35,440 nt of DNA. Origin: an uncultured bacterium. Lineage in GTDB: Bacteria; Patescibacteriota; Minisyncoccia; Phycocordibacterales; UBA9973. The position numbers were made by a program, and so were the translations under genes. The stretch spans positions 1-35,440 of the forward strand of contig CAIOXR010000078.1 of NCBI GenBank assembly GCA_903862375.1, written 5' to 3'. This document shows, one piece after another, positions 7,768 to 32,976 of this stretch. The notes under the pieces were generated by a model. It was not told the DNA's origin, made no database searches, and saw nothing but the letters and a program-made list of their open reading frames with translations. Position 1 is the first letter of the stretch; every line of letters begins with the position of its first letter.

Positions 7768-7790
7768 ATTTTTATTTTAACATATTTAAT

Positions 7791-8321: not shown

Positions 8322-8330
8322 AAAATATTT

Positions 8331-9302: not shown

Positions 9303-9313
9303 ATTATAACCTT

Positions 9314-9342
9314 TTCATATTTTTTGCCAAATATGCTAAAAT
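9314..9342 (+). promoter_or_regulatory. Candidate sigma70-type promoter for the glyA operon
   Basis: TTCATA (9314-9319), a 17-nt spacer and an extended -10 TGcTAAAAT (9334-9342). An alternative is TTGCCA (9324-9329) with TATTAA (9348-9353). This is sequence resemblance only. Confidence 0.3.
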
Positions 9343-9375
9343 CAACTTATTAACAATCTAATTTATTTATAATAT

Positions 9376-10548: not shown

Positions 10549-10551
10549 TTT

Positions 10552-11280
10552 ATGTTAAAAGATAAAATTATTTTAATAACAGGTTCGTCATCAGGTATTG
10601 GTGCAGCAACAGCTAGGCTTGCAAAAGAGTATGGAGCAATTCCTATTCTTCATGGTAAAACTGAAAGTGAAGAATTAACTAAATTAGCAAAAGAATTAGA
10701 ATGTAAATATATTTTCTGTGATGTATCAGATAAAGTTGCAGTAGAAAAATCTGTTAAAGATATTTTATTAGAAATTAAAAGAATTGATATTCTAGTAAAT
10801 TCAGCTGGTATCGCACCACGTGCAACGTTTTTAGAATCTACTGATGAATCATGGTTAGATATTTTTAAAGTTAATGTTTTAGGAACTGTACATTTTTGTC
10901 AGGTAATCCTTCCAATAATGAAAGAAAATAACTATGGAAGAGTAGTTAATATAGCTTCAATAAGAGCAAATATTAATACTTCAGGACGTGCAGCGTATTC
11001 TGCTTCAAAAGCTGCTATAGTGAATTTAACCTCAGTCTTAGCAAAAGAATTTGCTCCAAATATAGCAGTAAATGCAGTTTCACCTGGATACACAGAAACA
11101 CCTATTGCCGCAAATTGGGATGCAGAGGTTTGGAAGCAGGTAAATACTGCATTGGTAGGTAGAATTGGGCAACCTAAAGAAATTGCTGAAGCAATATTGT
11201 TTCTAGCAAGCGATAGAGCAAGTTTTATTACAGGGCAGAGTTTTATTGTCGATGGAGGTTATTCAATATCAGGGAAGTAA
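10552..11280 (+). CDS. Short-chain dehydrogenase/reductase (FabG-like SDR)
   Basis: It has the cofactor motif TGSSSGIG, NSAG, and the catalytic YSASKAA. The substrate cannot be assigned from sequence. Confidence 0.85.
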   Translation: MLKDKIILITGSSSGIGAATARLAKEYGAIPILHGKTESEELTKLAKELECKYIFCDVSDKVAVEKSVKDILLEIKRIDILVNSAGIAPRATFLESTDESWLDIFKVNVLGTVHFCQVILPIMKENNYGRVVNIASIRANINTSGRAAYSASKAAIVNLTSVLAKEFAPNIAVNAVSPGYTETPIAANWDAEVWKQVNTALVGRIGQPKEIAEAILFLASDRASFITGQSFIVDGGYSISGK

Positions 11281-11283
11281 TTT

Positions 11284-11943
11284 ATGCAAGAGAAAATAAA
11301 TACATTTTTATTAAAGAATCCTTTTGAATTGATTCCTATGGATAGGAAGGATTTTTATGATGAACAAGTTAAATTATTTAGAAGTGGTAAAAAACCAAAT
11401 AGAGCAATAGAGGTAATAAATGTAATTATATTTAATAGTCATGGTGAGTTAATTATTCAGAAAAGATCATACAATAAGAATCATAATGCAGGGTTGCTAG
11501 ACAAATCAATTGGTGGACATATTACATCTGGAGATACACCCGATTATACAGTTATGGTTGAAACAATACAGGAACTACAAATTCCCTCGATAGTACTAAA
11601 AGATGAGAATGATTTTATAAAAACTTTTCATCTTTTAGGAAACTATTTAGAAACAATTTCTTTGGCTAAACATTTTATTACTACATTCTACACTCCAATA
11701 AAAATAATAAACAAAGAGAATATACCAGTTGCAAATAGGATGCATTTATATTTTAGTATATATAATGGCAGAATAAGACCTGTGGATCGTGAAGCAAAAG
11801 GAATATTGTTTTATTCTATTTCTGAATTAAAAGAAGAAATGAATTTAAATCCTGAGACTTTTACAGATGATATGCATTATATTATGAAGGAGTATAAGGA
11901 TGATATTGAAAAGTTTGTAAAGATGATAACTAAAGACAAATAA
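11284..11943 (+). CDS. Nudix-fold protein of the IDI-like subgroup with a degenerate Nudix box
   Basis: IIFNSHGELIIQKRSYNKNHNAGLLDKSIGGHITSGDTPDYTVMVETIQELQI aligns to GX5EX7REUXEEXGU. However, it has D for the first E, V for R, Q for the first E of the EE pair, and Q for G. Confidence 0.65.
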   Translation: MQEKINTFLLKNPFELIPMDRKDFYDEQVKLFRSGKKPNRAIEVINVIIFNSHGELIIQKRSYNKNHNAGLLDKSIGGHITSGDTPDYTVMVETIQELQIPSIVLKDENDFIKTFHLLGNYLETISLAKHFITTFYTPIKIINKENIPVANRMHLYFSIYNGRIRPVDREAKGILFYSISELKEEMNLNPETFTDDMHYIMKEYKDDIEKFVKMITKDK

Positions 11944-11946
11944 TTT

Positions 11947-12039
11947 ATGAAAATATATTTTTCAGGAGCAATATCTGGGGGTAGAGAGTATTCTCATATT
12001 TATGAGAAGTTTATAAATATTATTAAAAAATTATTATGA
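11947..12039 (+). pseudogene. 30-codon relic of a nucleoside 2-deoxyribosyltransferase-like / DNPH1(Rcl)-like gene, N-terminus only
   Basis: This is not in the ORF track. It translates to MKIYFSGAISGGREYSHIYEKFINIIKKLL*, which matches the characteristic N-terminus (V/I)YF(A/C)GSIRGGR(E/D)...Y..I...L of that family. It ends in the ATGA overlap with tmk. Confidence 0.5.
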
Positions 12040-12767
12040 TAAATAAAAAAAGTTTAAAAAAGGGAAAACTTATAGTTATAGATGGCACAGATGGAAGTGG
12101 AAAGGCGACACAGGTTGTTTATTTGACGGAGAGGCTTAAGAAAGATGGGCACAAAGTAAAAGTTGTTGATTTCCCCGAATACTATAAGAATTTTTTTGGA
12201 GCTTTTATTGGACATTGTCTTTCTGAACAATATTACAATTTTATCAATGTTCATCCAAAAATTGCTTCAGTTCTTTATGCCGCTGACAGGTGGCAATCAA
12301 AAGATGGAATGGAAAAATGGCTTAAAGAAGGATATGTTATTATCGCGAACCGTTATGTCTCAGCCAATCAGATTCATCAGGGCGGCAAAATAAGTGATGC
12401 AAAAAAGAGAAATAGTTTTATAAAATGGCTTAATCAGATGGAGTATGAAGAATTTGGAATTCCAAGACCAGATGTTACCATATATTTAAGTTTGCCTATA
12501 GAGATAGTAATGAAACTTCTAAATGACAGAGAAAGTAGCCAGATGAAAAGAAAATATTTGAAGAAAAATAAAGATGTCCATGAAGCAGATGAAAAGTTTA
12601 TGGAGAATTCTATAAAGAGTGCATTATGGCTTGCAAAAACCCAGTCGAATTGGAGTAAAATTAATTGTTCAGAAAAAGGAGAAATTCTTTCGCGTGAGCA
12701 AATTCATGAGATGGTTTATGAAGAAGTGAAAAAGGTATTACCTGCTCGCCGAAATAGTGGGAAATAA
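12036..12767 (+). CDS. tmk: Thymidylate kinase
   Basis: It has the P-loop IVIDGTDGSGKATQ, the DRW/DRY-type motif AADRW, and a lid region. It is somewhat longer than typical Tmk. Confidence 0.9.
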   Translation: MINKKSLKKGKLIVIDGTDGSGKATQVVYLTERLKKDGHKVKVVDFPEYYKNFFGAFIGHCLSEQYYNFINVHPKIASVLYAADRWQSKDGMEKWLKEGYVIIANRYVSANQIHQGGKISDAKKRNSFIKWLNQMEYEEFGIPRPDVTIYLSLPIEIVMKLLNDRESSQMKRKYLKKNKDVHEADEKFMENSIKSALWLAKTQSNWSKINCSEKGEILSREQIHEMVYEEVKKVLPARRNSGK

Positions 12768-12768
12768 T

Positions 12769-13242
12769 ATGAGAATTCCAATTGTAAATGAAAAAGATGA
12801 AATAATAGGTTATAAAGAGAGAGAAGATAGAAATCCTCAAGATATTTCTCGTTGTACTGGTCTTTGGGTTGCAGATAAAGAAGGAAATATATTTTTGGCT
12901 CAAAGAGCTTTAGGAAAGAAGCATGATCCAGGATTATGGGGTCCAGCAGTTGGTGGAACAGTTGAAGAAGGTGAAACTTATGAATCAAATATTTTAAAAG
13001 AAGCAAGAGAAGAGATCGGATTAGTTAATATGAGTTTTAATTTTATAAATAAGATTCTTGTTCATAATTGTGTTGCTAAGTTTTATTCTGTCGTTGTTGA
13101 TCATGACTATAAATTTGTAAAACAAGATTCAGAAGTAGAAAATATAAAATGGTTCTCAAGAGAAGAATTAAATAAATTACTTGAAGAAAAACCAGAGATG
13201 TTTCAAAAAGATTTTAAAAAAATTATAGAATTATTTAAATAA
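12769..13242 (+). CDS. Nudix hydrolase (canonical Nudix box)
   Basis: GGTVEEGETYESNILKEAREEIGL is a full Nudix signature. The ATG at 12769 lies 1 nt after the tmk stop, so I prefer it over the tracked GTG at 12757. Confidence 0.85.
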   Translation: MRIPIVNEKDEIIGYKEREDRNPQDISRCTGLWVADKEGNIFLAQRALGKKHDPGLWGPAVGGTVEEGETYESNILKEAREEIGLVNMSFNFINKILVHNCVAKFYSVVVDHDYKFVKQDSEVENIKWFSREELNKLLEEKPEMFQKDFKKIIELFK

Positions 13243-13243
13243 C

Positions 13244-13666
13244 ATGAAAATCAAAATTAAAAAACTAAAAGAAGAAGCTAAATTACCAAAGTATCATCAT
13301 GTGGGAGATGTGGGTATGGATGTGTACTCTATGGAGACTTATACTATAGAACCAGGTGGGCATAAATTCTTCTTTCATGGTTTTGCGATGGAGTTTCCAG
13401 TTGGATATGTGGCATTAATTAAAGATAAAAGTAGTCTCTCTAAGGCGGGATTACATTCTATCGGTGGGGTATTTGATGCAGGATATAGAGGTGAATATAA
13501 TACTCATCTGGTAAATCTTTCAGATAAACCTTATACTGTAGAAGAGGGAGATAAAGTTGCCCAGATAGTTATAATGCCAGTTTCTATAGTAGAATTAGAA
13601 GAGGTTGAGAATTTAAGTGAATCAGACAGAGGAGAAGGTGCATTTGGAAGTACAGGGAGAAAATAG
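13244..13666 (+). CDS. dut: dUTP diphosphatase
   Basis: Motifs are HVGDVGMDVY, DAGYRGE, GDKVAQIV and the C-terminal RGEGAFGSTG. Confidence 0.93.
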   Translation: MKIKIKKLKEEAKLPKYHHVGDVGMDVYSMETYTIEPGGHKFFFHGFAMEFPVGYVALIKDKSSLSKAGLHSIGGVFDAGYRGEYNTHLVNLSDKPYTVEEGDKVAQIVIMPVSIVELEEVENLSESDRGEGAFGSTGRK

Positions 13667-13701: not shown

Positions 13702-15462
13702 ATGAAAAAACAAATAGAAAAATTAATACAGGAAGCATTAAAATCTTTAGATATAAATGAGGTTAATTTTTCTATTGAGCATCCGACTGATTTTAATAAT
13801 GGGGATTATTCGACAAATGTAGCAATGGTCTGTGCCAAACAAATGAAAACTAATCCTAGAGATTTAGCAGAGAAGATTGTTGCACTATTACAGACCCCCT
13901 CTGCTTTTGGCATCTCACCCTTAGCAGGGGGCGAGAATACTCTATCTATAATTTCAAAAATTCAAGTTGCTGGTCCTGGATTTATAAACTTTTATTTATC
14001 GAGAGAATTTTTTGCAAATAATATAAATGATATTTTAAAACAAAAAGAAAATTGGGGTAAGAATAAAATTCTTGAAGGTAAAAAGGTGATGGTAGAGTAT
14101 ACAGATATGAATCCATTTAAGCCTTTTCATATTGGTCATCTTATGACAAATGCGATAGGCGAGTCAGTCTCACGAATTGTAGAATTCTCTGGAGCAGATA
14201 CTATTCGTGCAAATTACCAGGGTGATGTGGGTCCTCATGTAGCTAAAGCTATATACGGTATTTTAAACTCTAAAGAATATAAAGAATTAGGATTTAAAAA
14301 TATTAATGGATCTGTCTCTCAAATTTCAAACTGGATTGGTGGATGTTATGCTAATGGTAGTAATTTGATGGATACGAGTGAAGACATAAAGAGAGAAATT
14401 GAAAGGATCAATAAAGCTGTTTATGAAAAAAGTGATGAAGAAGTGAATACAGTTTACGAATGGGGTATGGATATAACCATGAGGGCTTTTGAAGAGATTT
14501 ATAAAATTCTAGGAACAAAATTCGACAGATATTATATGGAGAGTGTCATGGCTCCTATCGGAGAAAAGATAGTAAAAGAAAATTTAGGTAAAGTGTTCAC
14601 AGAATCCGATGGAGCAATTGTTTTCCATGGCGAGAATTTTGATAAGAAGCTTCATACTAGAGTATTTATGAATTCTCAAGGCCTTCCTACCTATGAAACG
14701 AAAGAGATAGGTTTGACTATTACAAAATTTGAGAAAGATAACCCAGATATATCTATTATAACAACTGCGATAGAACAAGCAGAGTATATGAAAGTAGTCC
14801 AAAAGGCTATATCGTTAATACATCCAGATCTTGAGTCAAGAATGAAGCACATAACTCACGGCATGATGAAATTTGCTTTTGGAAAAATGTCTTCCAGAAA
14901 AGGTAATGTCATTACTGGTCAGTCACTCTTGAATGATTCTATAAGTGTAGTTTTAGAGAAAATGAAGGATAGAGAAATGACTGAAGAAGAGAAGAAAAAA
15001 ACTTCTGAAATCGTTGGTATATCGGCATTGAAATATTCAATACTCCGATCTTCTTTAGGTAGTGATATTATTTATGATTTTGAGAAATCAATCTCTTTTG
15101 AGGGAGATTCTGGTCCTTATCTACAGTACACCTCTGTCCGTGCAAATTCTATTATTAAAAAATCAGAGAGTATGAAGATAGGGGATAGTAATGATATTCC
15201 AGAGAGTATTACTTTACTTGAAAGATACCTGTATCAATTCCCTGAAGTTGTAGAACACTCATATGATAAGCTTGAGCCTCATCATATCGCTACATACCTC
15301 ACTGAGCTTGCAAGTAGTTTTAATTCATTCTATGGGAATACTCAAATACTGGTAGAAGAGAATAAATATATAAATTATCATTTGAATTTGATTAAGGCAT
15401 TTACAAGTACTATGAAGAATGGTCTCTGGCTTTTAGGTATTAAAATCCCAGAGAGAATGTAA
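13702..15462 (+). CDS. argS: Arginine--tRNA ligase
   Basis: It has GDYSTNVAM, AGPGFINF, the class I signature NPFKPFHIGHL, MSSRKGN (KMSKS-like), and a DALR anticodon-binding C-terminus ending in M. Confidence 0.95.
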   Translation: MKKQIEKLIQEALKSLDINEVNFSIEHPTDFNNGDYSTNVAMVCAKQMKTNPRDLAEKIVALLQTPSAFGISPLAGGENTLSIISKIQVAGPGFINFYLSREFFANNINDILKQKENWGKNKILEGKKVMVEYTDMNPFKPFHIGHLMTNAIGESVSRIVEFSGADTIRANYQGDVGPHVAKAIYGILNSKEYKELGFKNINGSVSQISNWIGGCYANGSNLMDTSEDIKREIERINKAVYEKSDEEVNTVYEWGMDITMRAFEEIYKILGTKFDRYYMESVMAPIGEKIVKENLGKVFTESDGAIVFHGENFDKKLHTRVFMNSQGLPTYETKEIGLTITKFEKDNPDISIITTAIEQAEYMKVVQKAISLIHPDLESRMKHITHGMMKFAFGKMSSRKGNVITGQSLLNDSISVVLEKMKDREMTEEEKKKTSEIVGISALKYSILRSSLGSDIIYDFEKSISFEGDSGPYLQYTSVRANSIIKKSESMKIGDSNDIPESITLLERYLYQFPEVVEHSYDKLEPHHIATYLTELASSFNSFYGNTQILVEENKYINYHLNLIKAFTSTMKNGLWLLGIKIPERM

Positions 15463-15720: not shown

Positions 15721-17460
15721 ATGGAAAATAAAACTCCAAAATTCGATACAATTTTAGATAAAATGTTGGAATGTTTAGTACCTCATTATCGTGTTTGTAA
15801 ATGGAGTGGTTTACATCAATATTGTGAAGGTGAATTTAATATAACAAAAGAAGATATTGAATTTCTCAAAATACTTCGAGCTCCAGCTCCAAATTATTGT
15901 CCTACTTGTAGAAGGATGAATCGTCATGCTTTCGTAAATAATATCAATTTATATAAGAGAGTAAATAGTGCTCCAGGGAAGAATAATAATACAATATCTT
16001 TTGTCCCCCCAGTTTCTAAATTTATTGTTTACGATTTAGAAAGTTATAAAAATAATTTTGATCCATATCTTTACGGTACTTTTTATGATGAATCAAAAAG
16101 TTTTATTGATCAATTTTATGATTTAAGATTGAAAGTTCCACAACCTGCTATTATTCGAGATCCTTCAAATATAAATAGCGAATATTCTATAAATGGAAGA
16201 GATTTGAAGAATGGATACTATGTTAGCGGTGGGTGGAGGTCTGAAAATGTCTGGTACTCAAATTTAGTGACAGACTCTCGTAATGTTATGGATATTTACG
16301 CCTCACATTTTATAGAAAATTCATATGAATTAACTTCTTGTGAGAAATGTTATAACTGTCAGTATTCTTATTTTTCTGATAATTGTATTAATTCAATGTT
16401 TATGTATGATTGTAACAATTGCCAAGATTGTTTTGGGTGTGTAAATTTAAGAAATAAAAGTAATTGCATTTTTAATAATCAATATTCAAAAGAAGAATAT
16501 AAAGAGAGTATTCTTAAAATTAATTTAAATAGTAAAAAAGTATTATCTGACTTAAATGATAAATTTTGGAAATTTGTAAAAACACAACCAGTTCGAGCAG
16601 AAAGGCATGAAAGTGTGAATAATGTCTCAGGAGTAAATATTTCAAATTCAAGAAATTGCCATGATGTTATTGATTGTGTTAATACAGAACATGTACTACA
16701 TTGTGACCAAATAGTAGGGCATAGAGATTCTATGGATGCCTCAGTGACAGGCGGTTCAGAAAGATTATACAATACCATTGCAGTAGGCTCTAAATCATCA
16801 AATGTAAAATTTTCTTTTGCTTCGAAATTTATAACAGAATCAGAATTTGTAATTAATTGTAGGAATGTGAATAATTGTTTTGCTTGTATTGGATTAGAGA
16901 ATAAGAATTATTGTATTTTTAATAGACAATATGAAAAAGATGAATATTATAAAGAATTAGATAAAATTAAAACAAATTTATTAATAAATGGAGAATATGG
17001 AGATTTTTTACCTTTTAAGTTTAGCACATTTGCTTATAATGGTTCATTGGCAGATATATCATTTCCAATAGACAAAGAAGGTATTGAAAAAGTTAGTGCA
17101 ATATGGCAGCCAGAAACTGAAACAAACGCAATAGGAATGGAGATGATAGAACCAGAAAATATACCAGATACAATAGAAGAAGTTTCTGATGATATTTTAC
17201 AGAAGGCTCTTATCTGCGAAAAAACAAGAAGACCATTTAGAATAATTGAATCTGAACTTGAATTTTACAAAATTCATAATATTCCCTTACCAAGAGTTCA
17301 CCAAATAAAAAGAATTAAAGATAGATATAAATATGTAGGAAATCTTAAAGCTTATAGTAATAATTGTGAATTATGTAGTAAAAAAATTAATACTTTTTAT
17401 ATAAAAGAAGATGGATGGAAATTATATTGTGATGAATGTTACAAGAGAGAAGTTTTATAA
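15721..17460 (+). CDS. Cysteine-rich protein of unknown function. It is the more degenerate paralog (26 Cys) of the 17473-19143 product.
   Basis: It aligns end to end with the downstream gene. It contains two copies of the cap motif C-x2-C-[FI]-[GA]-C-[VI]-x-L-x-x-K-x-x-C-I-F-N-x-x-Y-x-K-[ED]-E-Y, and zinc-ribbon-like termini that have partly lost their CxxC pairs. Confidence 0.8.
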   Translation: MENKTPKFDTILDKMLECLVPHYRVCKWSGLHQYCEGEFNITKEDIEFLKILRAPAPNYCPTCRRMNRHAFVNNINLYKRVNSAPGKNNNTISFVPPVSKFIVYDLESYKNNFDPYLYGTFYDESKSFIDQFYDLRLKVPQPAIIRDPSNINSEYSINGRDLKNGYYVSGGWRSENVWYSNLVTDSRNVMDIYASHFIENSYELTSCEKCYNCQYSYFSDNCINSMFMYDCNNCQDCFGCVNLRNKSNCIFNNQYSKEEYKESILKINLNSKKVLSDLNDKFWKFVKTQPVRAERHESVNNVSGVNISNSRNCHDVIDCVNTEHVLHCDQIVGHRDSMDASVTGGSERLYNTIAVGSKSSNVKFSFASKFITESEFVINCRNVNNCFACIGLENKNYCIFNRQYEKDEYYKELDKIKTNLLINGEYGDFLPFKFSTFAYNGSLADISFPIDKEGIEKVSAIWQPETETNAIGMEMIEPENIPDTIEEVSDDILQKALICEKTRRPFRIIESELEFYKIHNIPLPRVHQIKRIKDRYKYVGNLKAYSNNCELCSKKINTFYIKEDGWKLYCDECYKREVL

Positions 17461-17472
17461 AATAAATAAATT

Positions 17473-19143
17473 ATGAATTCAGAAACAAAAAATTGTAAGA
17501 ATTGTAAAAAAGATTTCACAATAGAATCTGATGATTTTTCTTTTTATGAAAAGATTGGTGTTTGTGTTCCAAACATGTGTCCTTGTTGTAGAGCTCAGTC
17601 ACGATTAAGTTTTCGTAATGAAAGAACATTTTATAAAAGACCATGTGATAAATGTAAGAAAAGTGTTGTATCTATGTATTCACCCAATAAATCATTTACT
17701 GTTTATTGCTACGATTGCTGGTTTAATGACAATTGGGGAGGGGAGGATTTTGGATTAGATTATGATTATAAAATTCCTTTTTTTGAACAATTTGATAAAT
17801 TATGGAAAAAAGTGCCTAAAGTTTCACTTATTTATATGCGTAGTCCAGGAAGTGAATATACAAATATATCTGCCGATAACAAAGATTGCTACTATATTAT
17901 AGAATCATCAAACAATGAAAATTCAATACATTCATACTGGATTCAAGAGTGTAGAGATGTGATAGACACTTCTTTTGCATCCAAGTGTGAGCTTACATAT
18001 GAATCTGATGATTGTTACAATTCATACAAACTTTTATATAGTAAAGGTTGTCATGATTGTACTACGAGTTATTTTCTTGCTGATTGCAAAGGGTGCACAG
18101 ATTGTATTGGGTGTATTAATTTAAGAAATAAAAGTAATTATATTTTCAATGAATCATATTCAAAAAAAGATTATGAAGAGATTAAAAAAGACTTAAATCT
18201 TAATACTTATACTGGCATAAAAAATTTCAGAGAAAAATATGAAGAATTTTTAATAAAAAAACCTCGTAAATTTGCTGAAATAATACAAATTGTAAATTCA
18301 ACTGGTTCATATATGAAAAATGTTAAGAATTGCAAGTCGTGTTTCCATTGTTATGATGCAGAAGACAATAAGTATGGTGTTCATATTTGGAGAAATGCTA
18401 AAGACACTATGGATTGTGATACAGCAGGAAGGAATGTATCTTTAATATATAATTCGATAAATGCTGGAATTGATAATTCAAATCTGACCTGTGTTGCTTT
18501 GTGTTGGACTTGTTCATTTGTAGAGTATTCTATGTATTGTTTTAATTCCAATAATTGTTTTGGTTGTGTTGGATTAAGAAAAAAGAATTATTGTATTTTA
18601 AATAAACAATATGGAAAAGAAGAATATGAAAGAATCGTAAATAATATAAAGAATGAATTGAAAGAAAAAGGAGAGTATGGTAGTTTCTTTTCTAATAATT
18701 TATCATGTTTTGGATATAATGAGACTCCAGCCAATGAACAATTTCCACTTTCTAAAAAAGAAGCAATAGAGAGAAGTTTTAAATGGGAAGATACGGAAAG
18801 GGGAGTATATAATAAAGAAACGAAGAAGATAGAGGATATACCTGACAGAATAGAAGATATAGATTTTGAAGTTAGTAATGAGATATATGTCTGTGCGGAT
18901 TGTAATAAAAATTATAAGATTATAGTAGATGAATTCTCTTTTTATAAGAAGTTAGATATTCCTTTACCTCGCTTGTGTCCTGAATGTAGACATAATAGAA
19001 GGATGAAATCGCGTGGTCCGAACAAGCTTTGGCATAGGTCTTGTATGAAAGAAGGTTGTTCTAATGAATTTGAAACTTCGTATTCATCAGATCGACCAGA
19101 GATAGTTTACTGCGAACAATGTTATCAGAATGAAGTAGTATAA
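17473..19143 (+). CDS. Cysteine-rich protein of unknown function (40 Cys) with zinc-ribbon modules at both termini and an internally duplicated Cys-ladder core
   Basis: The N-terminal module is CKNCKKDFTIESDDFSFYEKIGVCVPNMCPCCR...RPCDKCKK...VYCYDCW. The C-terminal module is CADCNKNYKIIVDEFSFYKKLDIPLPRLCPECR...RSCMKEGC...VYCEQCY. The central repeats end in CKGCTDCIGCINLRNKSNYIFNESYSKKDY and CFNSNNCFGCVGLRKKNYCILNKQYGKEEY. Confidence 0.85.
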   Translation: MNSETKNCKNCKKDFTIESDDFSFYEKIGVCVPNMCPCCRAQSRLSFRNERTFYKRPCDKCKKSVVSMYSPNKSFTVYCYDCWFNDNWGGEDFGLDYDYKIPFFEQFDKLWKKVPKVSLIYMRSPGSEYTNISADNKDCYYIIESSNNENSIHSYWIQECRDVIDTSFASKCELTYESDDCYNSYKLLYSKGCHDCTTSYFLADCKGCTDCIGCINLRNKSNYIFNESYSKKDYEEIKKDLNLNTYTGIKNFREKYEEFLIKKPRKFAEIIQIVNSTGSYMKNVKNCKSCFHCYDAEDNKYGVHIWRNAKDTMDCDTAGRNVSLIYNSINAGIDNSNLTCVALCWTCSFVEYSMYCFNSNNCFGCVGLRKKNYCILNKQYGKEEYERIVNNIKNELKEKGEYGSFFSNNLSCFGYNETPANEQFPLSKKEAIERSFKWEDTERGVYNKETKKIEDIPDRIEDIDFEVSNEIYVCADCNKNYKIIVDEFSFYKKLDIPLPRLCPECRHNRRMKSRGPNKLWHRSCMKEGCSNEFETSYSSDRPEIVYCEQCYQNEVV

Positions 19144-19433: not shown

Positions 19434-19440
19434 CTAGGTA

Positions 19441-19653
19441 TACGAAGAAGGAGTCATCACTCCTGAGTATTGGGAAGAAATGTTTCGTAAATCCGCCTTC
19501 GCAGGAAGGCTACGGCGAGACAAAGTAGAACCCTTTAATGAGAAGTCCCGTGCAATTCAGCGGGTAAAAAATGAGGTGGTACCACGTGTTTCATCGGAAG
19601 CTCGTCCTTATATAGCAATTATTATAATTGTTGTATGTGGACGAGTTTTTTTT
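19441..19653 (+). promoter_or_regulatory. T-box riboswitch leader (putative Ile specifier) controlling ileS by transcription attenuation
   Basis: The T-box core is AAAAAUGAGGUGGUACCACG (19567-19586). An antiterminator can form from GAGG (19573-19576) paired to CCUU (19606-19609), a 7-nt bulge UGGUACC, and ACG/CGU. Its 3' strand is shared with the terminator 5' arm. A Stem-III-like hairpin is CCCG..CGGG (19547-19564). AUC-A sits at 19456-19459 in the apical loop of hairpin 19450-19463. Confidence 0.75.
19601..19653 (+). terminator. Intrinsic terminator of the T-box leader
   Basis: CTCGTCC (19601-19607) pairs with GGACGAG (19639-19645). The stem extends inward with A-U and G-U pairs and is followed by T8 (19646-19653). 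Confidence 0.8.
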
Positions 19654-19811: not shown

Positions 19812-22800
19812 ATGGAAGAAAAAAATCAAAAGTCAAATAGTGCATTAAGAGAAGAAGCTGTTTTAAAATTCTGGAAAGAGAATGATATTTTCGAAAAGAG
19901 TTTAAAGAAAGACGCACCAAAAGGTAAATATGTTTTTTATGATGGTCCTCCTTTTGCTACGGGTTTGCCTCATTATGGTCATATTCTTGGAAGTGCAGTA
20001 AAAGATGTTATCGGTAGGTATAAAACAATGAGTGGATATAATGTTCCTCGTCGTTGGGGTTGGGATTGTCATGGTTTACCTATTGAAAATATTGTTGAAA
20101 AAGATTTAGGTATTTCAGGAAAGAAAGCCATCGAAGCATTAGGGATAGATAAGTTTACAGAACACGCACGTAGTAAGGTTCTTACTTATGTCTCCGAATG
20201 GAAGAAGACTGTTGATCGTATGGGACGCTGGGTAGATTTTGATAACTCCTATAAGACTATGGATAATACTTTTATAGAAAGTGTCTGGTGGGCATTAGGT
20301 GAAATGAATAAAAAAGGTTTACTTTACGAAGGAGTAAGAGTATTAGCATATTGCCCTCGATGTGAGACACCAATAGCAAACTCAGAAATAGCTATGGATA
20401 ATAGTTATAAAGATATCACTGATATTTCTGTATATGTTAAATTTAAAATTTTAGATAAAAAATATAAAGATACTTATCTTCTGGCTTGGACTACGACCCC
20501 TTGGACACTTCCTGGTAATACTGCCATAGCTATAAATAAAGATTTAGTTTATATATTAGTGAAAAATATTACAGATAAAGGTGAAGAAGTGTATATAGTA
20601 TCAAAAGATTTATTTGAAAGTTTAAGAAGTAAATTTAATAATCCTGAAATTATTAAAGAAGTAAAAGGTGAAGATTTAATCGGTCTTTCTTATGAACCAA
20701 TTTTTTCTTATTATGAAAATGTTGAAATACCAAATAAAGAAAATATTTGGAAAGTTTGGCATGCTGATTTTGTGACAATGGAAAAAGGTACTGGTATTGC
20801 GCATGAGGCTCCTGCCTTTGGTGAAGATGACATGAATCTGGCAAAGATGAATAATATTCCTTTTATTCGTCATGTTGAACCAAATGGTGATTTCTCAAAA
20901 GAAGTTACTGATTTCCCAAATGTGAAAGCAAAACCCAAAGAAGATCATCAATCTACTGATATATTAATTATTAAATATTTGGCTGGTAGTGGACATCTTT
21001 TTGCCAAAGAAAAAATAATACACTCATATCCTCATTGTTACCGTTGTGAGACACCACTTTTGTATTATGCTCTTCCATCTTGGTTTATAAATATTCAAAA
21101 AGTAAAAAATGATTTAATTAAGAAGGGTGAAGATATGAATTGGATACCAGGACATTTAAAAGATGGGCGCTTTAAGCAAACTATGGAAAGTGCACCAGAT
21201 TGGACTATATCTCGTAATCGTTATTGGGCAAGTCCATTACCATTTTGGAAATCAAAAAGTGGCAAACTAATAGTTATAAGTTCACTAGAGGATCTAAAAT
21301 CAAAAATAAAGAAATCTGGAAATAAATATTTTGTAATGCGTCATGGAGAAGCAGAGTGTAATGTCAGTAAAGTTATTTTAGATGATGATCAAGCGAATAA
21401 TTGTAAACTTACAGAAAAAGGTAGGGAGCAAGTTAAAGATAGTTCTAAGAATTTTAAAGAAAAGATAGATATCATAATTGCTTCTCCTTTGGAAAGAACT
21501 AGAGAAACTACAAAAATTATTTGTGAAAATATTGGTTTTCCTTTAGATAAAGTTATATACAGTGACCTTGAAAAAGAATGGGATGTTAGCTCAAATTTTC
21601 AAGGTAAATCCAGAGAAGATTTTGAAGATTATTATTGTAGACAATATTTGAATCATCCATTTGAAGCATTACCAAATGGAGAGAGTTATTCTCAGCTTGT
21701 ATATCGTGTTGGTAAAATGATTTATGATATAGATAGTAAATATAATGGGAAAAATATTCTTTTAGTTGGGCATGCAGGTGAAACCAGTGCTCTTAATCAT
21801 GTGGTTCAAGGATTTTCTTTTGAGACATTAGCGAAAGATTTGCATTTTCCTTCATATTTAAAGAATGCTGAGATAAGAGAACTTGATTTTATTCCTTTAC
21901 CTCACAATCATAATTATGAACTTGATTTTCATCGTCCATATATTGACTCCATTATACTTGTAGATGATGAAGGGGAAGAATACAAAAGAATTTCTGAAGT
22001 TGTAGATTGTTGGTTTGAATCTGGGTCTATGCCTTTTGCTCAAAATCATTACCCATTTGAGTGTCCTAATTGGAAAGAAGAAAATTTTCCATCAGGTTTT
22101 GTTGCTGAGTATATAGCTCAAACTCGAACATGGTTTTACTATACACATACTATTTCTACTATTCTTTTTGGAGAAGCACCATTTGAGAATGTTGTGACGA
22201 CTGGAACTGTATTAGCAGAAGATGGGGCTAAGATGTCGAAATCTAAGAATAATTATCCTGATCCATGGTTATTATTTAATAAATATGGAGTTGATGCTCT
22301 TCGTTTTTATTTAGTATCTTCTACTCTTATGAAAGGAGAGGATGTTAATTTCTCTGAAAAGTTAGTACAAGAGGTCGCTAGTAAGATAATTAATCGTTTT
22401 GATAATGTAGTTTCTTTTTATGAATTATATAAAGGAGATTTTGATCCAGAAAGTGAACATGAAATATCAAAAAATGTTTTAGATATTTGGATCATATCAA
22501 GATTAAAACAATTTGTTTTAGAAGTAGAAGATGGTATGAAATCCTATGATTTAGCACAAGCGACAAAACCATTTGAATTGTTTATTGAAGATTTATCTAC
22601 ATGGTATTTGCGTAGATCTCGCGATAGATTAAAAGAAAATGATGCTGAATCTAAACAGACGCTATATTTTGTGTTAAAGGTAACAGTTCAGTTATTTGCT
22701 CCATTTATGCCATTTATTGCTGATGATATTTGGCAGAAAATCCGATTTGAATCGGATCCTGTAAGTGTTCATCTTACAGACTTTTTTGATGGAATTAAAA

Positions 22801-23291
22801 TAGATAGTATAGATACTAAAATAATAAATGAAATGCAAGAAGTTCGTGAGGTTGTTACTTTGGGTCTTCAAGCGAGACAAAAAGCAGGAATACCAGTAAG
22901 ACAGCCTTTGGGTGAGCTAGTAGTTACTAATTACAAGCTACCTAAAGAATACGAAGAGATAGTCAAAGATGAATTAAATATAAAAGAGATTAAGATATTA
23001 GATGGTGAAGAAAAGAAAGTAGAGATAGATACGGATATCACACCCGAGCTTCGTACAGAGGGTCAGTATAGAGAGCTTGTAAGAGCTATACAAGATATGA
23101 GGAAAAAAGCAGGACTTAACCCAAGTGATATTGTAAATATCATAATATCTACCTCTAAAGAAGGAGAAGGTCTAATAAATAAATTTAAGAATGAACTACT
23201 AAAAGCAGTAGGGTCAAATGAGATAAAAATAAAAGAGAATAATGGAACTGAGGTCAAGATTGATGATTTAATATTTGTCATAAGTATATAA
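19812..23291 (+). CDS. ileS: Isoleucine--tRNA ligase (type 2-like) carrying an inserted histidine-phosphatase domain
   Basis: It has HIGH as PHYGHILG, the CP1 editing motif TTTPWTLPGNTA, RNRYWASPLPFW, and KMSKS as AKMSKSKNN. At 1159 aa it includes an insert of about 195 aa, listed separately. Confidence 0.95.
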   Translation: MEEKNQKSNSALREEAVLKFWKENDIFEKSLKKDAPKGKYVFYDGPPFATGLPHYGHILGSAVKDVIGRYKTMSGYNVPRRWGWDCHGLPIENIVEKDLGISGKKAIEALGIDKFTEHARSKVLTYVSEWKKTVDRMGRWVDFDNSYKTMDNTFIESVWWALGEMNKKGLLYEGVRVLAYCPRCETPIANSEIAMDNSYKDITDISVYVKFKILDKKYKDTYLLAWTTTPWTLPGNTAIAINKDLVYILVKNITDKGEEVYIVSKDLFESLRSKFNNPEIIKEVKGEDLIGLSYEPIFSYYENVEIPNKENIWKVWHADFVTMEKGTGIAHEAPAFGEDDMNLAKMNNIPFIRHVEPNGDFSKEVTDFPNVKAKPKEDHQSTDILIIKYLAGSGHLFAKEKIIHSYPHCYRCETPLLYYALPSWFINIQKVKNDLIKKGEDMNWIPGHLKDGRFKQTMESAPDWTISRNRYWASPLPFWKSKSGKLIVISSLEDLKSKIKKSGNKYFVMRHGEAECNVSKVILDDDQANNCKLTEKGREQVKDSSKNFKEKIDIIIASPLERTRETTKIICENIGFPLDKVIYSDLEKEWDVSSNFQGKSREDFEDYYCRQYLNHPFEALPNGESYSQLVYRVGKMIYDIDSKYNGKNILLVGHAGETSALNHVVQGFSFETLAKDLHFPSYLKNAEIRELDFIPLPHNHNYELDFHRPYIDSIILVDDEGEEYKRISEVVDCWFESGSMPFAQNHYPFECPNWKEENFPSGFVAEYIAQTRTWFYYTHTISTILFGEAPFENVVTTGTVLAEDGAKMSKSKNNYPDPWLLFNKYGVDALRFYLVSSTLMKGEDVNFSEKLVQEVASKIINRFDNVVSFYELYKGDFDPESEHEISKNVLDIWIISRLKQFVLEVEDGMKSYDLAQATKPFELFIEDLSTWYLRRSRDRLKENDAESKQTLYFVLKVTVQLFAPFMPFIADDIWQKIRFESDPVSVHLTDFFDGIKIDSIDTKIINEMQEVREVVTLGLQARQKAGIPVRQPLGELVVTNYKLPKEYEEIVKDELNIKEIKILDGEEKKVEIDTDITPELRTEGQYRELVRAIQDMRKKAGLNPSDIVNIIISTSKEGEGLINKFKNELLKAVGSNEIKIKENNGTEVKIDDLIFVISI
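21324..21917 (+). other. Histidine phosphatase (phosphoglycerate-mutase-like) domain embedded in-frame within IleRS (about aa 505-702)
   Basis: KYFVMRHGEAECN carries the RHG catalytic motif. IIASPLERTRETT carries the second Arg region. ILLVGHAGETSAL carries the distal catalytic His. The domain is flanked by IleRS core segments: ...PFWKSKSGKLIVISSLEDLK on the left and ELDFHRPYID...VVDCWFESGSMP on the right. Confidence 0.8.
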
Positions 23292-23299
23292 AATATATT

Positions 23300-23842
23300 A
23301 TGGATACAATGTATCAAAAAGAATTAAATTCTTGGAAAAAGATTTGTATTTTAAATCCTCATAATCTTAGTGAAAAGGAAATAAGTGAACTACCTGTCTA
23401 TTTTGGGACTAGGACTGTCATACTAGTAGATGACGATAAGGTTGTATTAATTAAATCCACGAAATCAAATTATTATGTACTAGTTGGAGGAAGTATAGAA
23501 GAAGGGGAGACCATAGAGCAGGGCCTTATACGTGAGTGTAAAGAGGAATCTGGGTATGATATCTCTATTATTTCTCCTCTCGGTTACATAGAACTATGTA
23601 AGAAAAAATACAAAAGAATTATTTTTGGATTTTTAGTAAAAGCTGTAGGAGAGCCAACTGAGCTTTTGCTTACGGAGGAAGAAAAAGAATTAGGGCATAC
23701 AGTATACATCTGTCCTATGGATGAAGCGATAACTCTCTTAAAAAATGATGTAAAAAAAGGCGTTTTTGTTAAAGATAATTTGGCAGCCATCCGCTCTCTT
23801 ATGTTTTTAGAAGAAGCTGAAAAGTATTTAAAAAAGTGCTAA
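23300..23842 (+). CDS. Nudix hydrolase
   Basis: GGSIEEGETIEQGLIRECKEESGY is a canonical Nudix box. Confidence 0.8.
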   Translation: MDTMYQKELNSWKKICILNPHNLSEKEISELPVYFGTRTVILVDDDKVVLIKSTKSNYYVLVGGSIEEGETIEQGLIRECKEESGYDISIISPLGYIELCKKKYKRIIFGFLVKAVGEPTELLLTEEEKELGHTVYICPMDEAITLLKNDVKKGVFVKDNLAAIRSLMFLEEAEKYLKKC

Positions 23843-27557: not shown

Positions 27558-28964
27558 ATGGAACAAAAAAATGATGGAAAATTAATGGAGAAGATTATAT
27601 CACTTTGTAAGAGAAGAGGTTTTGTTTTTGCTTCTTCAGAAATATATGGTGGTATGGCTGGTGTTTATGATTATGGGCACTATGGTGTACTTTTTAAAGA
27701 CAATATAAAAAAAGAATGGGAAAAAAATATGATACAGATGAGGGAAGATATTGTTGGTCTTGATAGTGCTATATTCATGCATCCAAGGACATGGGTTGCT
27801 TCTGGTCACGTGGCAGGATTTAATGATCCACAAGTTGACTGTCATAATTGTAAATCAAGATTTAGAGCTGATCATATACTTGAAGATTTCGGTATTCAAG
27901 CCGATAAGGCTGGTATAGAATTTATAAATGATGAATTGAATAAACTTCGTGAATTAAAAAAGCTTGTATGTCAGAACTGTGGTAAGGCTGAATTAGGAGA
28001 AGCTAGAGTATTCTCAATGATGGTTAAATCAAATTTTGGTTCACCGATTGATTCACTTACTGAAGAAAATGTAGCTTATCTAAGACCAGAGACTTGTGGT
28101 GGTATATATCTAGAATATAAGAATACACTTGATAGTCTTCATTCTAAACTACCATTCGGTATTGCTCAAGTTGGTAAAGTATTTAGGAATGAAATTGCAG
28201 CTAGGCAGTTTATCTTTCGTACTCGTGAATTTGAACAAATGGAAATGCAGTATTTTCATGATCCATTAGATACAGTTTCTATTTTTGAAAATTGGAAACA
28301 GACAAGATATGACTGGTATCTTTTATATGGAATTCCTGATGATAAATTACGTTTTTATAAGCATGAGAAGTTGGCTCATTATGCTACTGATGCTTATGAT
28401 GTCGAGTATGATTTTGAGTCGATGGGTGGCTTTAAAGAAGTAGAAGGTATACACGCAAGGGGAAACTGGGATTTGTCTCAACATAGCAAGTTCTCAGGTA
28501 TTGCTCTTGACTACTACGATGAAGAAAAGAAGAAAAGATTTACTCCACATATAGTAGAAACTTCTGTAGGTTTAGCTAGACTTTTCTTAATGTTTATTGA
28601 TAATGCTTATACAGAAATACTTTCAGAAGAAGGTGAGACTCGTGTATTCTTGAAACTAGATCCAAGATTAGCTCCTATCAAGGTTGCTATCTTTCCACTA
28701 CTTAAGAACAAGCCTGAGCTTGTATCAACTGCGCATAATTTGTATTTAAAGATTAGAAGTGAGTTTATGTGTGAGTTTGATGATAATGGTAACATAGGTA
28801 AGAGGTATAGAAGACAGGATGAGATAGGAACTCCATGGTGTGTGGTTGTAGACTTTGATACACTCGAAGATAATTCTGTAACTATCCGTGATCGTGATAC
28901 TGGTCTTCAAGAAAGAATTCAAAAAGAAGATATAGTCGCTTACATAAAAGAGAGGATGAAATAA
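27558..28964 (+). CDS. glyQS: Glycine--tRNA ligase (homodimeric alpha2 type)
   Basis: Motifs are RRGFVFASSEIYGG, YLRPETCGG, FRNEIAARQFIFRTREFEQMEMQYF, and a C-terminal anticodon-binding domain. Confidence 0.95.
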   Translation: MEQKNDGKLMEKIISLCKRRGFVFASSEIYGGMAGVYDYGHYGVLFKDNIKKEWEKNMIQMREDIVGLDSAIFMHPRTWVASGHVAGFNDPQVDCHNCKSRFRADHILEDFGIQADKAGIEFINDELNKLRELKKLVCQNCGKAELGEARVFSMMVKSNFGSPIDSLTEENVAYLRPETCGGIYLEYKNTLDSLHSKLPFGIAQVGKVFRNEIAARQFIFRTREFEQMEMQYFHDPLDTVSIFENWKQTRYDWYLLYGIPDDKLRFYKHEKLAHYATDAYDVEYDFESMGGFKEVEGIHARGNWDLSQHSKFSGIALDYYDEEKKKRFTPHIVETSVGLARLFLMFIDNAYTEILSEEGETRVFLKLDPRLAPIKVAIFPLLKNKPELVSTAHNLYLKIRSEFMCEFDDNGNIGKRYRRQDEIGTPWCVVVDFDTLEDNSVTIRDRDTGLQERIQKEDIVAYIKERMK

Positions 28965-31425: not shown

Positions 31426-32976
31426 ATGAATAAAACATTTTTTCACAACAAGCGAGGATCGAATAGCCAAGTAGACTTGGATATGTCGTCCGAATCGAAG
31501 TTGGGACAAAACGGTACTCCGTTTTATCTTACAACAACTTTGCCGTACGTGAACGCACCACTACACATGGGGCATGCATTAGAGTTCGTACGTGCAGATA
31601 CAATAGCTCGATATAAGAAATTACTTGGTTTTGATGTTTATTTTAATACTGGGACAGATGAGCACGGTATGAAGATTTATGAGAAAGCTAAAGAGAGTGG
31701 CTTGGATATTCAAGATTTTGTGGACCAAGGTTTTGAAACTTTTAAAAATCAGCTAAAGATGTTTGGGGTTTTAGAAGACGTCCACTTCATTCGTACTACA
31801 GATACGAATCATATAAAATCTGCTCAAGAATTCTGGAAGAGGGTAGAGAGTAATGGTTTTATTTATAAGAAAACCTATGAGGCTAAATATTGTATGGGTT
31901 GTGAAAGTGAAAAAACAGATTCAGAACTTGTAAATGGTGAGTGTCCATTTCATACTGGACAAGAACTTAAACTTATAAATGAAGAGAATTATTTCTTTAA
32001 ATATTCTTCATTTGGAGATAAACTTTTGAAATTATATTCTGATAATCCAAATTTTGTTATTCCAGATTTTAGACTGAATGAAGTAAAGAATTTTGTAAAT
32101 AGTGGTCTTCAAGATTTTTCAATTTCTCGCTTGAAAGAAAAAATGCCATGGGGTATACCAGTACCTGGGGATGATGCTCAAGTAATGTATGTATGGTTTG
32201 ATGCACTCACAAATTATATTTCAACTTTAGGGTGGCCTACCTCATATACTGATTCGACGGACAAGCCGGAAGATAAAGATAATTTTGAAAAGTATTGGAT
32301 AAATGGCAATCCTACTCAGTATTGTGGAAAAGATAATACTCGTTTTCAAGCTGCTATGTGGCAGGCAATGCTTATGGCTGCAGGTGTACCTAACTCTCAT
32401 CAGATAATTGTGAATGGATTTATAACAGGTGAAGGTGGTATTCGTATGTCGAAGTCTCTTGGCAATGGAGTTGATCCTAAAGAAATTGTAGATGAGTACG
32501 GTACTGATGCTTTAAGATACTTTCTCCTTCGTGAAGTAAGTAGTTTTGAAGATAGTCCTTTTACTATTGAACGATTTAAGGATTCATATAATTCAGGATT
32601 AGCAAATGGATTAGGGAATTTAACTTCAAGAATATTAACTTTATCTGAAAAATATTTAAATGGAAATTTTAATTTAGAAGAGCAAAAAATTCCTGAAGAA
32701 TTTTTTGCATATTTGGAAAGTTTTGATATTCAAAAAGCTACTTCGTATATATGGGAGAAAATAGGTGAGCTAGATAAAAGGATTCAAGAGACTGAGCCAT
32801 TTAAAGTAGTAAAAGTTGATTTAGAAAAAGGGAAAGAATTAATTAAGGAAAATGTTATTAACTTATATATTATTTCTAAAATGCTTATTCCTATCCTTCC
32901 AGAAACATCTAAAAAAATTCAAAGTTTAATTAAAGAAAATAAAAAACCAGAAATTTCTTTATTTTTACGTAAATAA
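31426..32976 (+). CDS. metG: Methionine--tRNA ligase
   Basis: It has TLPYVNAPLHMGH (HIGH), a CxxC...CP knuckle (CMGCESE...GECPFH), RMSKSLGN (KMSKS), and WFDALTNY. The start is ambiguous: the ATG at 31483 (MSSESK...) would remove an atypical 19-aa N-terminal extension. Confidence 0.93.
   Translation: MNKTFFHNKRGSNSQVDLDMSSESKLGQNGTPFYLTTTLPYVNAPLHMGHALEFVRADTIARYKKLLGFDVYFNTGTDEHGMKIYEKAKESGLDIQDFVDQGFETFKNQLKMFGVLEDVHFIRTTDTNHIKSAQEFWKRVESNGFIYKKTYEAKYCMGCESEKTDSELVNGECPFHTGQELKLINEENYFFKYSSFGDKLLKLYSDNPNFVIPDFRLNEVKNFVNSGLQDFSISRLKEKMPWGIPVPGDDAQVMYVWFDALTNYISTLGWPTSYTDSTDKPEDKDNFEKYWINGNPTQYCGKDNTRFQAAMWQAMLMAAGVPNSHQIIVNGFITGEGGIRMSKSLGNGVDPKEIVDEYGTDALRYFLLREVSSFEDSPFTIERFKDSYNSGLANGLGNLTSRILTLSEKYLNGNFNLEEQKIPEEFFAYLESFDIQKATSYIWEKIGELDKRIQETEPFKVVKVDLEKGKELIKENVINLYIISKMLIPILPETSKKIQSLIKENKKPEISLFLRK

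Follow-up and report, generated by a model that had tools for sequence, protein, structure and literature searches.

A histidine phosphatase domain nested in the CP3 loop of type-2 isoleucyl-tRNA synthetase, and its split-gene counterpart in related Patescibacteria

Aminoacyl-tRNA synthetases are among the best-studied enzymes, and the accretion of extra domains by these proteins is seen mainly as a eukaryotic theme, in which the additions are usually terminal. In isoleucyl-tRNA synthetase (IleRS), the CP3 subdomain comprises residues 473-534 of the Candida enzyme, has a beta-beta-alpha-alpha arrangement and varies among IleRSs (PMC7191050). In the yeast enzyme CP3 (residues 459-526) follows a linker, 453-ARDWNVSRNRYWG-465, which lines the reveromycin A pocket at the tRNA binding site (PMC7955072). 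Here, a stretch of 35,440 nucleotides from an uncultured bacterium of the Patescibacteriota was analyzed (contig CAIOXR010000078.1 of GenBank assembly GCA_903862375.1, in the following called the window). Its ileS gene codes for an IleRS in which about 200 amino acids (aa) stand in place of the 4-17 aa CP3 loop of insert-less IleRS. An earlier note, made from the sequence alone, had pointed to this insert as an intact histidine phosphatase domain.

The synthetase itself was characterized as follows; all features of ileS given here are on the + strand. In the AT-rich window (~31% GC), 19812-23291 is one unbroken open reading frame (ORF) of 1159 aa, the product of which scored 855.3 bits against the ileS equivalog model TIGR00392 (cutoff 621.4). 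The HIGH signature is present as HYGH, the canonical HXGH form (aa 54-57, nt 19971-19982), and the TTTPWT motif of the CP1 editing domain (aa 227-232, nt 20490-20507) is identical in 60 of 60 relatives. A GTGIAH motif is located at aa 326-331, and KMSKS (aa 807-811, nt 22230-22244) lies within the second half of the Rossmann fold. ORF, model score and motifs thus agree with the continuous 1159-aa ileS with HIGH, CP1 editing and KMSKS elements that the earlier note had read. The protein was assigned to type 2 by its match to the IleRS2 structure 8C8V (717 bits) compared with the IleRS1 structure 8C9E (291 bits) and by the type-2 C-terminal domain PF19302 (aa 1069-1158), which follows the anticodon-binding domain PF08264 (aa 891-1033; both within nt 22482-23285 according to Pfam). 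An AlphaFold2 (AF2) model of the full-length protein reached a predicted local distance difference test score (pLDDT) of 82.2 and a predicted template modelling score (pTM) of 0.70; in Foldseek its top matches were the IleRS2 structures 8C8U/8C8V (E 6e-73), on which the model superposes outside the insert. The models of the mupirocin-resistance enzymes MupA/MupB (NF000257/NF000258) gave 671 and 708 bits against a cutoff of 1900. With the ileS_w_GNAT model (NF040702; cutoff 1999) the window protein scored 346.6 bits, and Pfam showed no GNAT domain in it. The ileS product of the window is therefore a complete, intact type-2 IleRS.

To place the insert, the protein was aligned to the type-2 structure 8C8V. 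Residues 1-484 matched chain residues 1-462 and residues 698-1072 matched 480-859, which leaves ~17 reference residues opposite ~213 here. The insert-less IleRS of a related locus (L098), which reads ...AELKEFSG-ILLN-DLHKPYID..., gave the boundaries N504-E703 (nt 21321-21920), a segment of ~200 aa that comprises the histidine phosphatase and a conserved return linker. This agrees within 3 nt with the previously proposed extent of 21324-21917, or about 195 aa in exchange for a short loop. The earlier placement in the catalytic core was right in that the insert lies inside the catalytic domain; the host is the peripheral and variable CP3 subdomain and not the Rossmann core. CP3 begins directly past the CP2-CP3 linker APDWTISRNRYWA (aa 461-473, nt 21192-21230), the equivalent of the yeast linker at the reveromycin/tRNA pocket (453-ARDWNVSRNRYWG-465; PMC7955072). 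According to the AF2 secondary structure, the N-terminal part of CP3 (nt 21231-21320) is a beta-hairpin and a helix (…LEDLKSKIKKSG) that run into the insert, with strands at 478-481 and 486-488 and the helix at 492-498, after which the first strand of the phosphatase (505-510) follows at once. The domain begins one residue past the native SG, and 3-12 residues separate its N- and C-terminal strands from the ends of the loop. The chain returns to the synthetase through the 12-residue linker DFIPLPHNHNYE (nt 21885-21920), which is strongly kept among the fusions (pattern PLPHNxNYE; conservation 0.96 for P697, 0.99 for H698, 0.91 for N699 and 0.90 for Y702) and is missing from the free-standing homologues and insert-less IleRSs that were compared. 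The end of CP3 (LDFHRPYID) and the second Rossmann half follow at nt 21921-22421, as judged by the alignment to 8C8V and by motif reading. An intein, self-splicing element or mobile protein insertion was not recognized in aa 497-703, where Pfam found His_Phos_1 only.

The identity of the inserted domain was analyzed next. Pfam His_Phos_1 (PF00300) matched aa 507-675 (nt 21330-21836, +) with an E value of 7.6e-24 in the whole protein, and nt 21324-21917 alone scored 90.2 bits (E 1.8e-25), above the curated cutoff of 21.7, which assigns the insert to the histidine phosphatase superfamily. The class I catalytic domain is recognized by Pfam in two parts, one on either side of this match. The motifs on which the first identification had been based, VMRHGEAECN, SPLERTRETT and LLVGHAGE, are all present as quoted. 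The RHG motif consists of R510, H511, the predicted nucleophile, and G512 (nt 21339-21347, R and H invariant). It is joined by the second catalytic arginine R562 in SPLERTRET (nt 21495-21497), the predicted proton donor E589 (nt 21576-21578) and the distal catalytic histidine H654 in LLVGHAG (nt 21771-21773). No variation in R510, H511, R562, E589 or H654 was seen among 81 species sequences or among 119 homologues, so that the earlier statement that the catalytic positions are preserved extends to the orthologs. T534, G537, S558, E624 and R632 are likewise invariant in the 81 species sequences. Modelled alone, the insert reached a pLDDT of 90.3 and a pTM of 0.88, consistent with independent folding, and most of it had a pLDDT of 75-95 in the full-length model. 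As far as can be judged from sequence, the embedded domain is in all likelihood catalytically active.

Since PF00300 includes cofactor-dependent phosphoglycerate mutase (dPGM), and since no other His_Phos/PGAM gene was found within the 35-kb window, the insert might be taken for the organism's own dPGM, hosted by IleRS. This is scarcely credible, as the dPGM models remained at 17-58 bits against cutoffs of 81.7-421 (NF038349 58 versus 225, TIGR01258 23 versus 81.7, the PRK141xx models 17-25 versus 305-421). When a profile of the 81 species inserts was compared with the PDB, PhoE (1EBB/1H2E, 1e-23), PspA (4IJ5) and CobC (6NRU) came first and true mutases were far behind; in Foldseek, the model of the insert matched PspA, CobC, GpgP and PhoE with a probability of 1.00 and a TM-score of ~0.70-0.73. 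Past the catalytic glutamate the window reads E-W-D-V-S-S and its relatives RE-x-x-F-G, which is the phosphatase pattern as in PhoE, while mutases have ERHYG at that position. The equivalog models of the alpha-ribazole phosphatase CobC (TIGR03162, 61.3 bits versus a cutoff of 162.9) and of the phosphoserine phosphatase PspA (NF045917, 44.1 versus 350) were not reached either. Because the dPGM, CobC and PspA models all stay far below their cutoffs, the insert is classed, by its profile matches, as a branch-1 histidine phosphatase of the small-phosphatase subgroup outside every characterized specificity family. The label PGAM-like that it had first been given needs correction: the domain is of the phosphatase type (PhoE/CobC/PspA-like) and not of the mutase type. 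No match to the insert was found in the PADLOC defence library.

The fusion is not confined to one assembly. The same protein was found in an independent assembly (P0026, 100% identity, 1157 aa versus 1159). All 120 of the 120 best full-length homologues carry both PF00133 and PF00300, which answers to the search for long IleRSs with a His_Phos_1 domain that had been suggested with the first observation. The 119 beyond the identical one have 61-81% identity and lengths of 1136-1232 aa, many are encoded on contigs of 50-360 kb and one is an entry from a 2015 groundwater genome. In addition, one genome per species (GTDB) was scanned with the junction motifs, which gave at least 560 confirmed matches. 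The best 80 of these span the full insert including both junctions and are labelled Paceibacteria, Nomurabacteria, Zambryskiibacteria, Vogelbacteria and Parcubacteria, that is, the Parcubacteria group of Patescibacteria. The lone exception among them is a metagenome-assembled genome (MAG) labelled Nitrospira; a few MAG labels among the best 80 are probably wrong. A library of 1.84 billion proteins was also searched for the domain; of its 150 closest relatives there, 102 are at least 260 aa long, and 95 of these 102 contain an IleRS core, with 25-51% identity to the core of the window.

The insert is also maintained by selection. In pairs sharing the same type of insert, the ratio of nonsynonymous to synonymous substitution rates (dN/dS) of the insert was 0.07-0.26; for one pair with unsaturated dS (L029/L031, dS 0.42) it was 0.09 in the insert and 0.11 in the core. 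The insert evolves faster than the core (majority-residue fraction 0.55 versus ~0.85) and is under purifying selection, not decaying. An assembly chimera, a frameshift or a decaying insertion, the last of which the earlier note had already thought not to fit, was refuted by the identical independent assembly, by continuous ORFs in 76 of the 80 genome loci and by purifying selection, and its probability is negligible. Two proteins encoded on long contigs (P0012 and P0015) end inside the phosphatase and could be cited in favour of an artefact, but both derive from one assembly with a high error rate, where ArgRS and all other genes are fragmented. In the long-contig assembly of L081 and L082 (ENA sample ERZ1286166), nearly all genes, including those for ArgRS, IleRS and an NTP-transferase, are broken into short ORFs, as is typical when indel errors of long reads are left uncorrected; spurious 'split' IleRS-phosphatase proteins in protein databases result from this.

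The free-standing proteins most like the insert (29-33% identity) are encoded within the same conserved gene block. At L098, on a contig of 49.8 kb, the order is arginyl-tRNA synthetase (ArgRS), a 49-aa ORF, a His_Phos protein of 194 aa, a 311-aa ORF, a 1001-aa insert-less IleRS with plain CP3, RecO, a conserved ~600-aa protein (unk621) and a class II aminoacyl-tRNA synthetase. At L089, ArgRS is followed by a basic/hydrophobic ORF of 49 aa, a His_Phos protein of 190 aa and, 35 bp downstream, IleRS; at L083 and L087, ArgRS is followed by His_Phos. A metagenome scan with the free-standing proteins revealed ArgRS, the small ORF and His_Phos together in 9 of 11 close loci, and ileS within ~1.3 kb in 6 of the 11. 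The gene order of L098 recurs in the window and in the majority of the 80 fusion loci (64 have RecO, 57 the 600-aa protein and 54 ArgRS), and in these 80 loci neither a free-standing His_Phos gene nor the small ORF is present. Because the order at L098 matches that of the window and of fusion loci that lack the free-standing gene, the split and the nested state are alternatives at one locus, a Rosetta-stone relationship with conserved neighbourhood. The phosphatase descends from the family of this neighbouring gene (block argS, 49-51 aa ORF, His_Phos, ileS, recO) in related Patescibacteria; in the Paceibacteria/Parcubacteria lineages the separate gene is gone and the domain is inside ileS. A crude comparison of inserted with free-standing domains gave identities of 35-55% everywhere, which provides no resolution on monophyly.

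The small ORF in front of the free-standing gene was found at L098:8846-8995, L083:3833-3988, L088:188-343 and L089:419-568. It encodes 49-51 aa with a basic N-terminus (KYRKKYK) and a hydrophobic helix (VKVVGSxxLFFxxAxGxDAYxLFH), abuts or overlaps the start of His_Phos at L098, L088, L093 and L094, and is missing from the window as well as from the 80 fusion loci.

This gene order allows for the explanation that the domain is a passenger: an ordinary housekeeping phosphatase for a metabolite unrelated to translation, encoded next to ileS, would have been taken up by a permissive loop of the synthetase, near-neutrally or because a promoter is saved in a minimal genome, and both enzymes would work independently. 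The proposal in the earlier note that the domain is parked in a permissive loop hence remains a live rival, the main one, which we regard as possible but rather unlikely. With a donor-type gene 35 bp to ~1 kb upstream of ileS in relatives, a local rearrangement would be easy; the free-standing homologues occur in Patescibacteria-type contexts (ArgRS, IleRS), the insert evolves faster than the core, and CP3 was already the most variable IleRS subdomain (PMC7191050). On the other hand, the argS/ileS neighbourhood is kept even when the gene is unfused, the return linker PLPHNxNYE is specific to the fusions and highly conserved, and the large proteins among the closest domain relatives nearly all contain an IleRS core (the 95 of 102 given above).

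Insertions of the domain were also found at other positions of IleRS. P0206, a variant encoded on six contigs, the longest of 1.06 Mb, has a normal zinc-knuckle CP3 without insert. It carries one copy right after WFESGSMPYAS (corresponding to ~aa 745-755 of the window protein) and another between the catalytic and the anticodon-binding domain (~aa 873-890), and these insertions are independent of the one in CP3. In the AF2 model of the window protein, site A (CP3, aa 503/704), site B (~745-755) and site C (~873-890) all fall in loops that are coil or of low confidence, as would be expected of a passenger. Among the variants P0153, P0183, P0206, P0222, P0225 and P0260, some have two His_Phos domains and P0153 has four, with some of the copies at sites B and C. 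For a captured housekeeping gene such copy numbers are difficult to explain, and so is the use of at least three independent internal sites when an N-terminal end-to-end fusion, the easiest outcome of the gene order, was not seen. Other domains have been added to IleRS as well. At L012 (7732-8538), L014, L036 (7735-8532) and L074, an HD phosphohydrolase of ~190-210 aa is fused to the C-terminus and replaces the DUF5915 end; PF01966 matched the two scanned tails, those of L012 and L036, with 29.8 and 33.7 bits (cutoff 22). A 1066-aa protein from JGI (P0245) combines an IS200-like Y1 transposase in CP1 (aa 340-461) with His_Phos (680-854) and GNAT (935-1063). It is known from a single contig and may be an oddity of assembly or gene calling.

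We then compared the history of the insert with that of its host. In 60 full-length sequences, identities of insert and core were uncorrelated (Spearman 0.03-0.13), whereas the two halves of the core correlated with 0.83 and neighbouring genes among themselves with 0.71-0.86. A single ancient insertion inherited vertically with the core was rejected, as the insert-core correlation expected from it was not seen. Sliding windows revealed sharp breaks of identity at ~aa 495 and ~690. In four pairs (L009/L066, L012/L036, window/L070 and L018/L074), identity is ~70-97% along most of the catalytic core and only 12-57% in the insert. The reverse was observed for L039/L050 (N-terminal core 27-60%, insert 42-85%) and L054/L042 (N-terminal core 17-67%, insert 70-85%), both with ArgRSs that are 83-89% identical. 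Because the insert is replaced with the core kept, and the core with the insert kept, these sequence comparisons indicate that the insert is exchanged as a cassette between IleRS cores that are only ~47% identical. This free swapping is again compatible with a passenger. At least 16 cassette types at 45% identity were distinguished in this sample, with the greatest difference in the cap region past E589.

At the same syntenic position the HIGH motif varies as well, HXGH being present in 17 of the 60 sequences, including the window, and G/AXHH in 42 (GIHH in 34, ALHH in 5, and others). Since close relatives with ArgRSs 83-89% identical differ in the type of core, the ileS core is itself subject to horizontal replacement. 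G/AXHH was shown to give IleRS2 mupirocin hyper-resistance (PMC10485003), and a motif linked to this trait thus circulates in these uncultured bacteria.

Taken together, we give a probability of about one half to the explanation that the protein is a bifunctional enzyme, a functional type-2 IleRS with an autonomous phosphomonoesterase of the PhoE/CobC/PspA type in a surface loop of CP3, tethered to the synthetase and linked to translation. Because its terminal strands are so close to the loop ends, the domain would fold as a bead on the CP3 loop and leave the synthetase undisturbed. H511 would attack a phosphomonoester to form a phospho-histidine, the phosphate would be held by R510, R562 and H654, and E589 would protonate the leaving group. 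The fusion would secure 1:1 expression and co-localization of the phosphatase with IleRS, and the substrate would be a phosphomonoester connected with translation that is encountered at the synthetase or close to it. The leading guess is a nucleotide, or else a tRNA end on which a phosphate blocks charging; a glycolytic intermediate seems less likely, and for any particular substrate, confidence is low. A functional tie is favoured because the association is kept in the split form, because three internal sites were used without N-terminal fusion, because there are up to four copies and because the fusion-specific linker is conserved. Several observations weigh against it. The ancestral state is a separate gene, so the function needs no covalent attachment, and a donor gene directly upstream of ileS could alone explain why the domain repeatedly landed in ileS loops. 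That all three sites are modelled as low-confidence or coil loops fits simple permissiveness, and an intimate, co-adapted interface would hardly be expected where cassettes move freely between divergent cores. Furthermore, the domain is carried by IleRS only and not by other synthetases, which a general role in product removal does not predict. On balance, the chances that the link to IleRS is functional and that it is merely genomic appear equal.

The location of the insert raises a more specific explanation, in which the phosphatase acts as on-board repair or defence. Its substrate would be tRNA(Ile) with a 3' CCA end blocked by phosphate or pyrophosphate, or else IleRS that is itself inhibited by phosphorylation, and removal of the group would restore charging; the blocks would come from toxins, for example tRNA-pyrophosphorylating toxSAS or synthetase-targeting Hip-type kinases. 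CP3 adjoins the segment that lines the tRNA-binding-site (reveromycin) pocket (PMC7955072). Other IleRSs of the candidate phyla radiation (CPR) have gained a C-terminal HD phosphohydrolase, GNAT and possibly NUDIX, and the recombination mosaic of ileS, with HXGH/G/AXHH switching and shuffled cassettes, is of the kind that antagonistic selection typically leaves in its targets. Protein and phospho-histidine phosphatases, among them SixA, PGAM5 and Sts-1, moreover belong to the superfamily. The idea is attractive, but all of this is circumstantial and we consider it improbable: a linked toxin gene is lacking, PADLOC gave no match to the insert, and no histidine phosphatase is known to act on the 3' end of a tRNA. 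The partner of the ancestral unfused gene is a small ORF of membrane type, which is hardly suggestive of tRNA repair, and breakpoints at conserved flanks can be neutral. If the explanation were true, the HD, GNAT and possibly NUDIX domains of sister CPR IleRSs would play the same role in repair or counter-defence after attack by toxins or inhibitors, and the shuffling of cassettes and the switching of the HIGH motif at one locus would record an arms race centred on IleRS.

Alternatively, the domain might be a regulatory sensor of a metabolite, for instance an alarmone-derived nucleotide or a phosphoester from glycolysis, which it would bind or turn over in order to control IleRS allosterically. 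In line with this are its location within the catalytic domain, the pTM of 0.70 of the full-length model and the conservation of the two flanking linkers, which suggests a fixed orientation. However, an exchange of cassettes between very different cores and the existence of sites B and C are hard to square with a tuned allosteric interface, and the fully conserved catalytic machinery points to turnover and not to mere binding, so that we consider a sensor very unlikely.

In the vicinity of ileS, a candidate T-box-like leader with a near-canonical AAAUGAGGUGGUACCACG core was detected at 19436-19612 (+), ~200 nt upstream of the start of the gene, as a patch of 48-49% GC in a spacer of 17-27% GC. 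It matched Rfam RF00230 over the full span of the model with 32.3 bits (gathering score 93; E 1.4e-5), Stem I being down to a few bases, and the assignment as a T-box is tentative. Three genes for NUDIX hydrolases are located in the window (11284-11943, 12757-13242 and 23300-23842), the last of them on the + strand and 9 nt past the ileS stop codon. A functional link of ileS to this downstream gene was rejected, as the adjacency is held in only 2 of 80 related loci. In a fragment of 492 aa (P0357), an IleRS N-terminus is joined to a NUDIX domain, which is unconvincing. Just upstream of ileS, two adjacent ORFs of 579 and 556 aa (15721-17460 and 17473-19143, +), of which at least the second is very rich in CxxC pairs, showed no match in Pfam or PADLOC, and homologues were found in only 3-4 of 80 related loci. 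Further upstream, 7225-13666 holds a compact cluster for dTMP synthesis and pyrimidine salvage with genes for a dCTP deaminase-like protein, DHFR, thymidylate synthase, SHMT, thymidylate kinase and dUTPase. The window contains four synthetase genes in total, for ArgRS (13702-15462), IleRS, a class II enzyme (27558-28964) and MetRS (31426-32976).

No mention of a phosphatase insert in IleRS, or of Patescibacteria IleRS, was found in open-access full text, including structural and phylogenetic papers that cover IleRS widely, although such an absence is not proof. The novelty claimed in the earlier note therefore stands as far as a published description is concerned, but the arrangement is not rare and has been in public databases, unnamed, since the groundwater genomes of 2015. 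NCBI annotates these proteins only as 'class I tRNA ligase family protein', and in NCBIfam there is a curated model for IleRS-GNAT and none for the His_Phos variant. A synthetase with an acquired extra domain is known as such; what appears to be new is that CP3 hosts a complete phosphatase throughout a whole class of bacteria, that a split-gene counterpart exists, that the insertion sites are convergent and that cassettes are exchanged. In this class of ultra-small bacteria, an essential synthetase of class I carries a full second enzyme within its catalytic domain. Split-gene and nested states in sister lineages with the same gene order provide a natural experiment; the entry of the domain into IleRS at three sites, with a copy number of 1-4, is a case of convergence, and the swapping of cassettes between divergent synthetase cores one of modularity. 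The locus is a well-defined system for studying how domains insert into enzymes without loss of function, and the sequences suffice to design point mutants and a loop-replacement construct for it. According to what the substrate is, it could reveal a new tie of tRNA charging to phosphate-ester metabolism or to tRNA repair.

Compared with known systems, the host closely resembles type-2 IleRSs such as those of P. megaterium (8C8V), the yeast and Candida cytoplasm and T. thermophilus, with the same order of Rossmann fold, CP core, CP1 editing domain, CP2, CP3, anticodon-binding domain and type-2 C-terminal domain and with both HIGH and KMSKS; it differs in that its CP3 hosts an extra enzyme of ~200 aa, which none of the solved or described IleRSs compared does. 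The insert shares with the broad-specificity phosphatase PhoE (YhfR of Geobacillus stearothermophilus), CobC and PspA the fold, a length of ~190-200 aa that aligns end to end, and the RHG motif, second arginine, glutamate donor and distal histidine. Those enzymes are free-standing, whereas the window domain is nested, has only ~20-25% identity to them and reaches no equivalog cutoff. A combination of a CobC/PhoE-like phosphatase and a nucleic-acid enzyme in one chain is known from the RNase H/acid phosphatase of the M. tuberculosis Rv2228c type. Its model, NF005567, is the best NCBIfam match of the isolated insert, which at 65.9 bits against a cutoff of 326 is not a member. That protein is an end-to-end fusion with another partner enzyme, while the window insert is nested in IleRS. 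6-Phosphofructo-2-kinase/fructose-2,6-bisphosphatase is likewise bifunctional with a branch-1 histidine phosphatase (profile match E ~1e-11), but its domains are in tandem, act on one shared metabolite and have no synthetase partner. Finally, IleRS with GNAT (NF040702) provides a precedent for the gain of an unrelated enzymatic domain by IleRS, with another added domain and at another insertion site than in the window.

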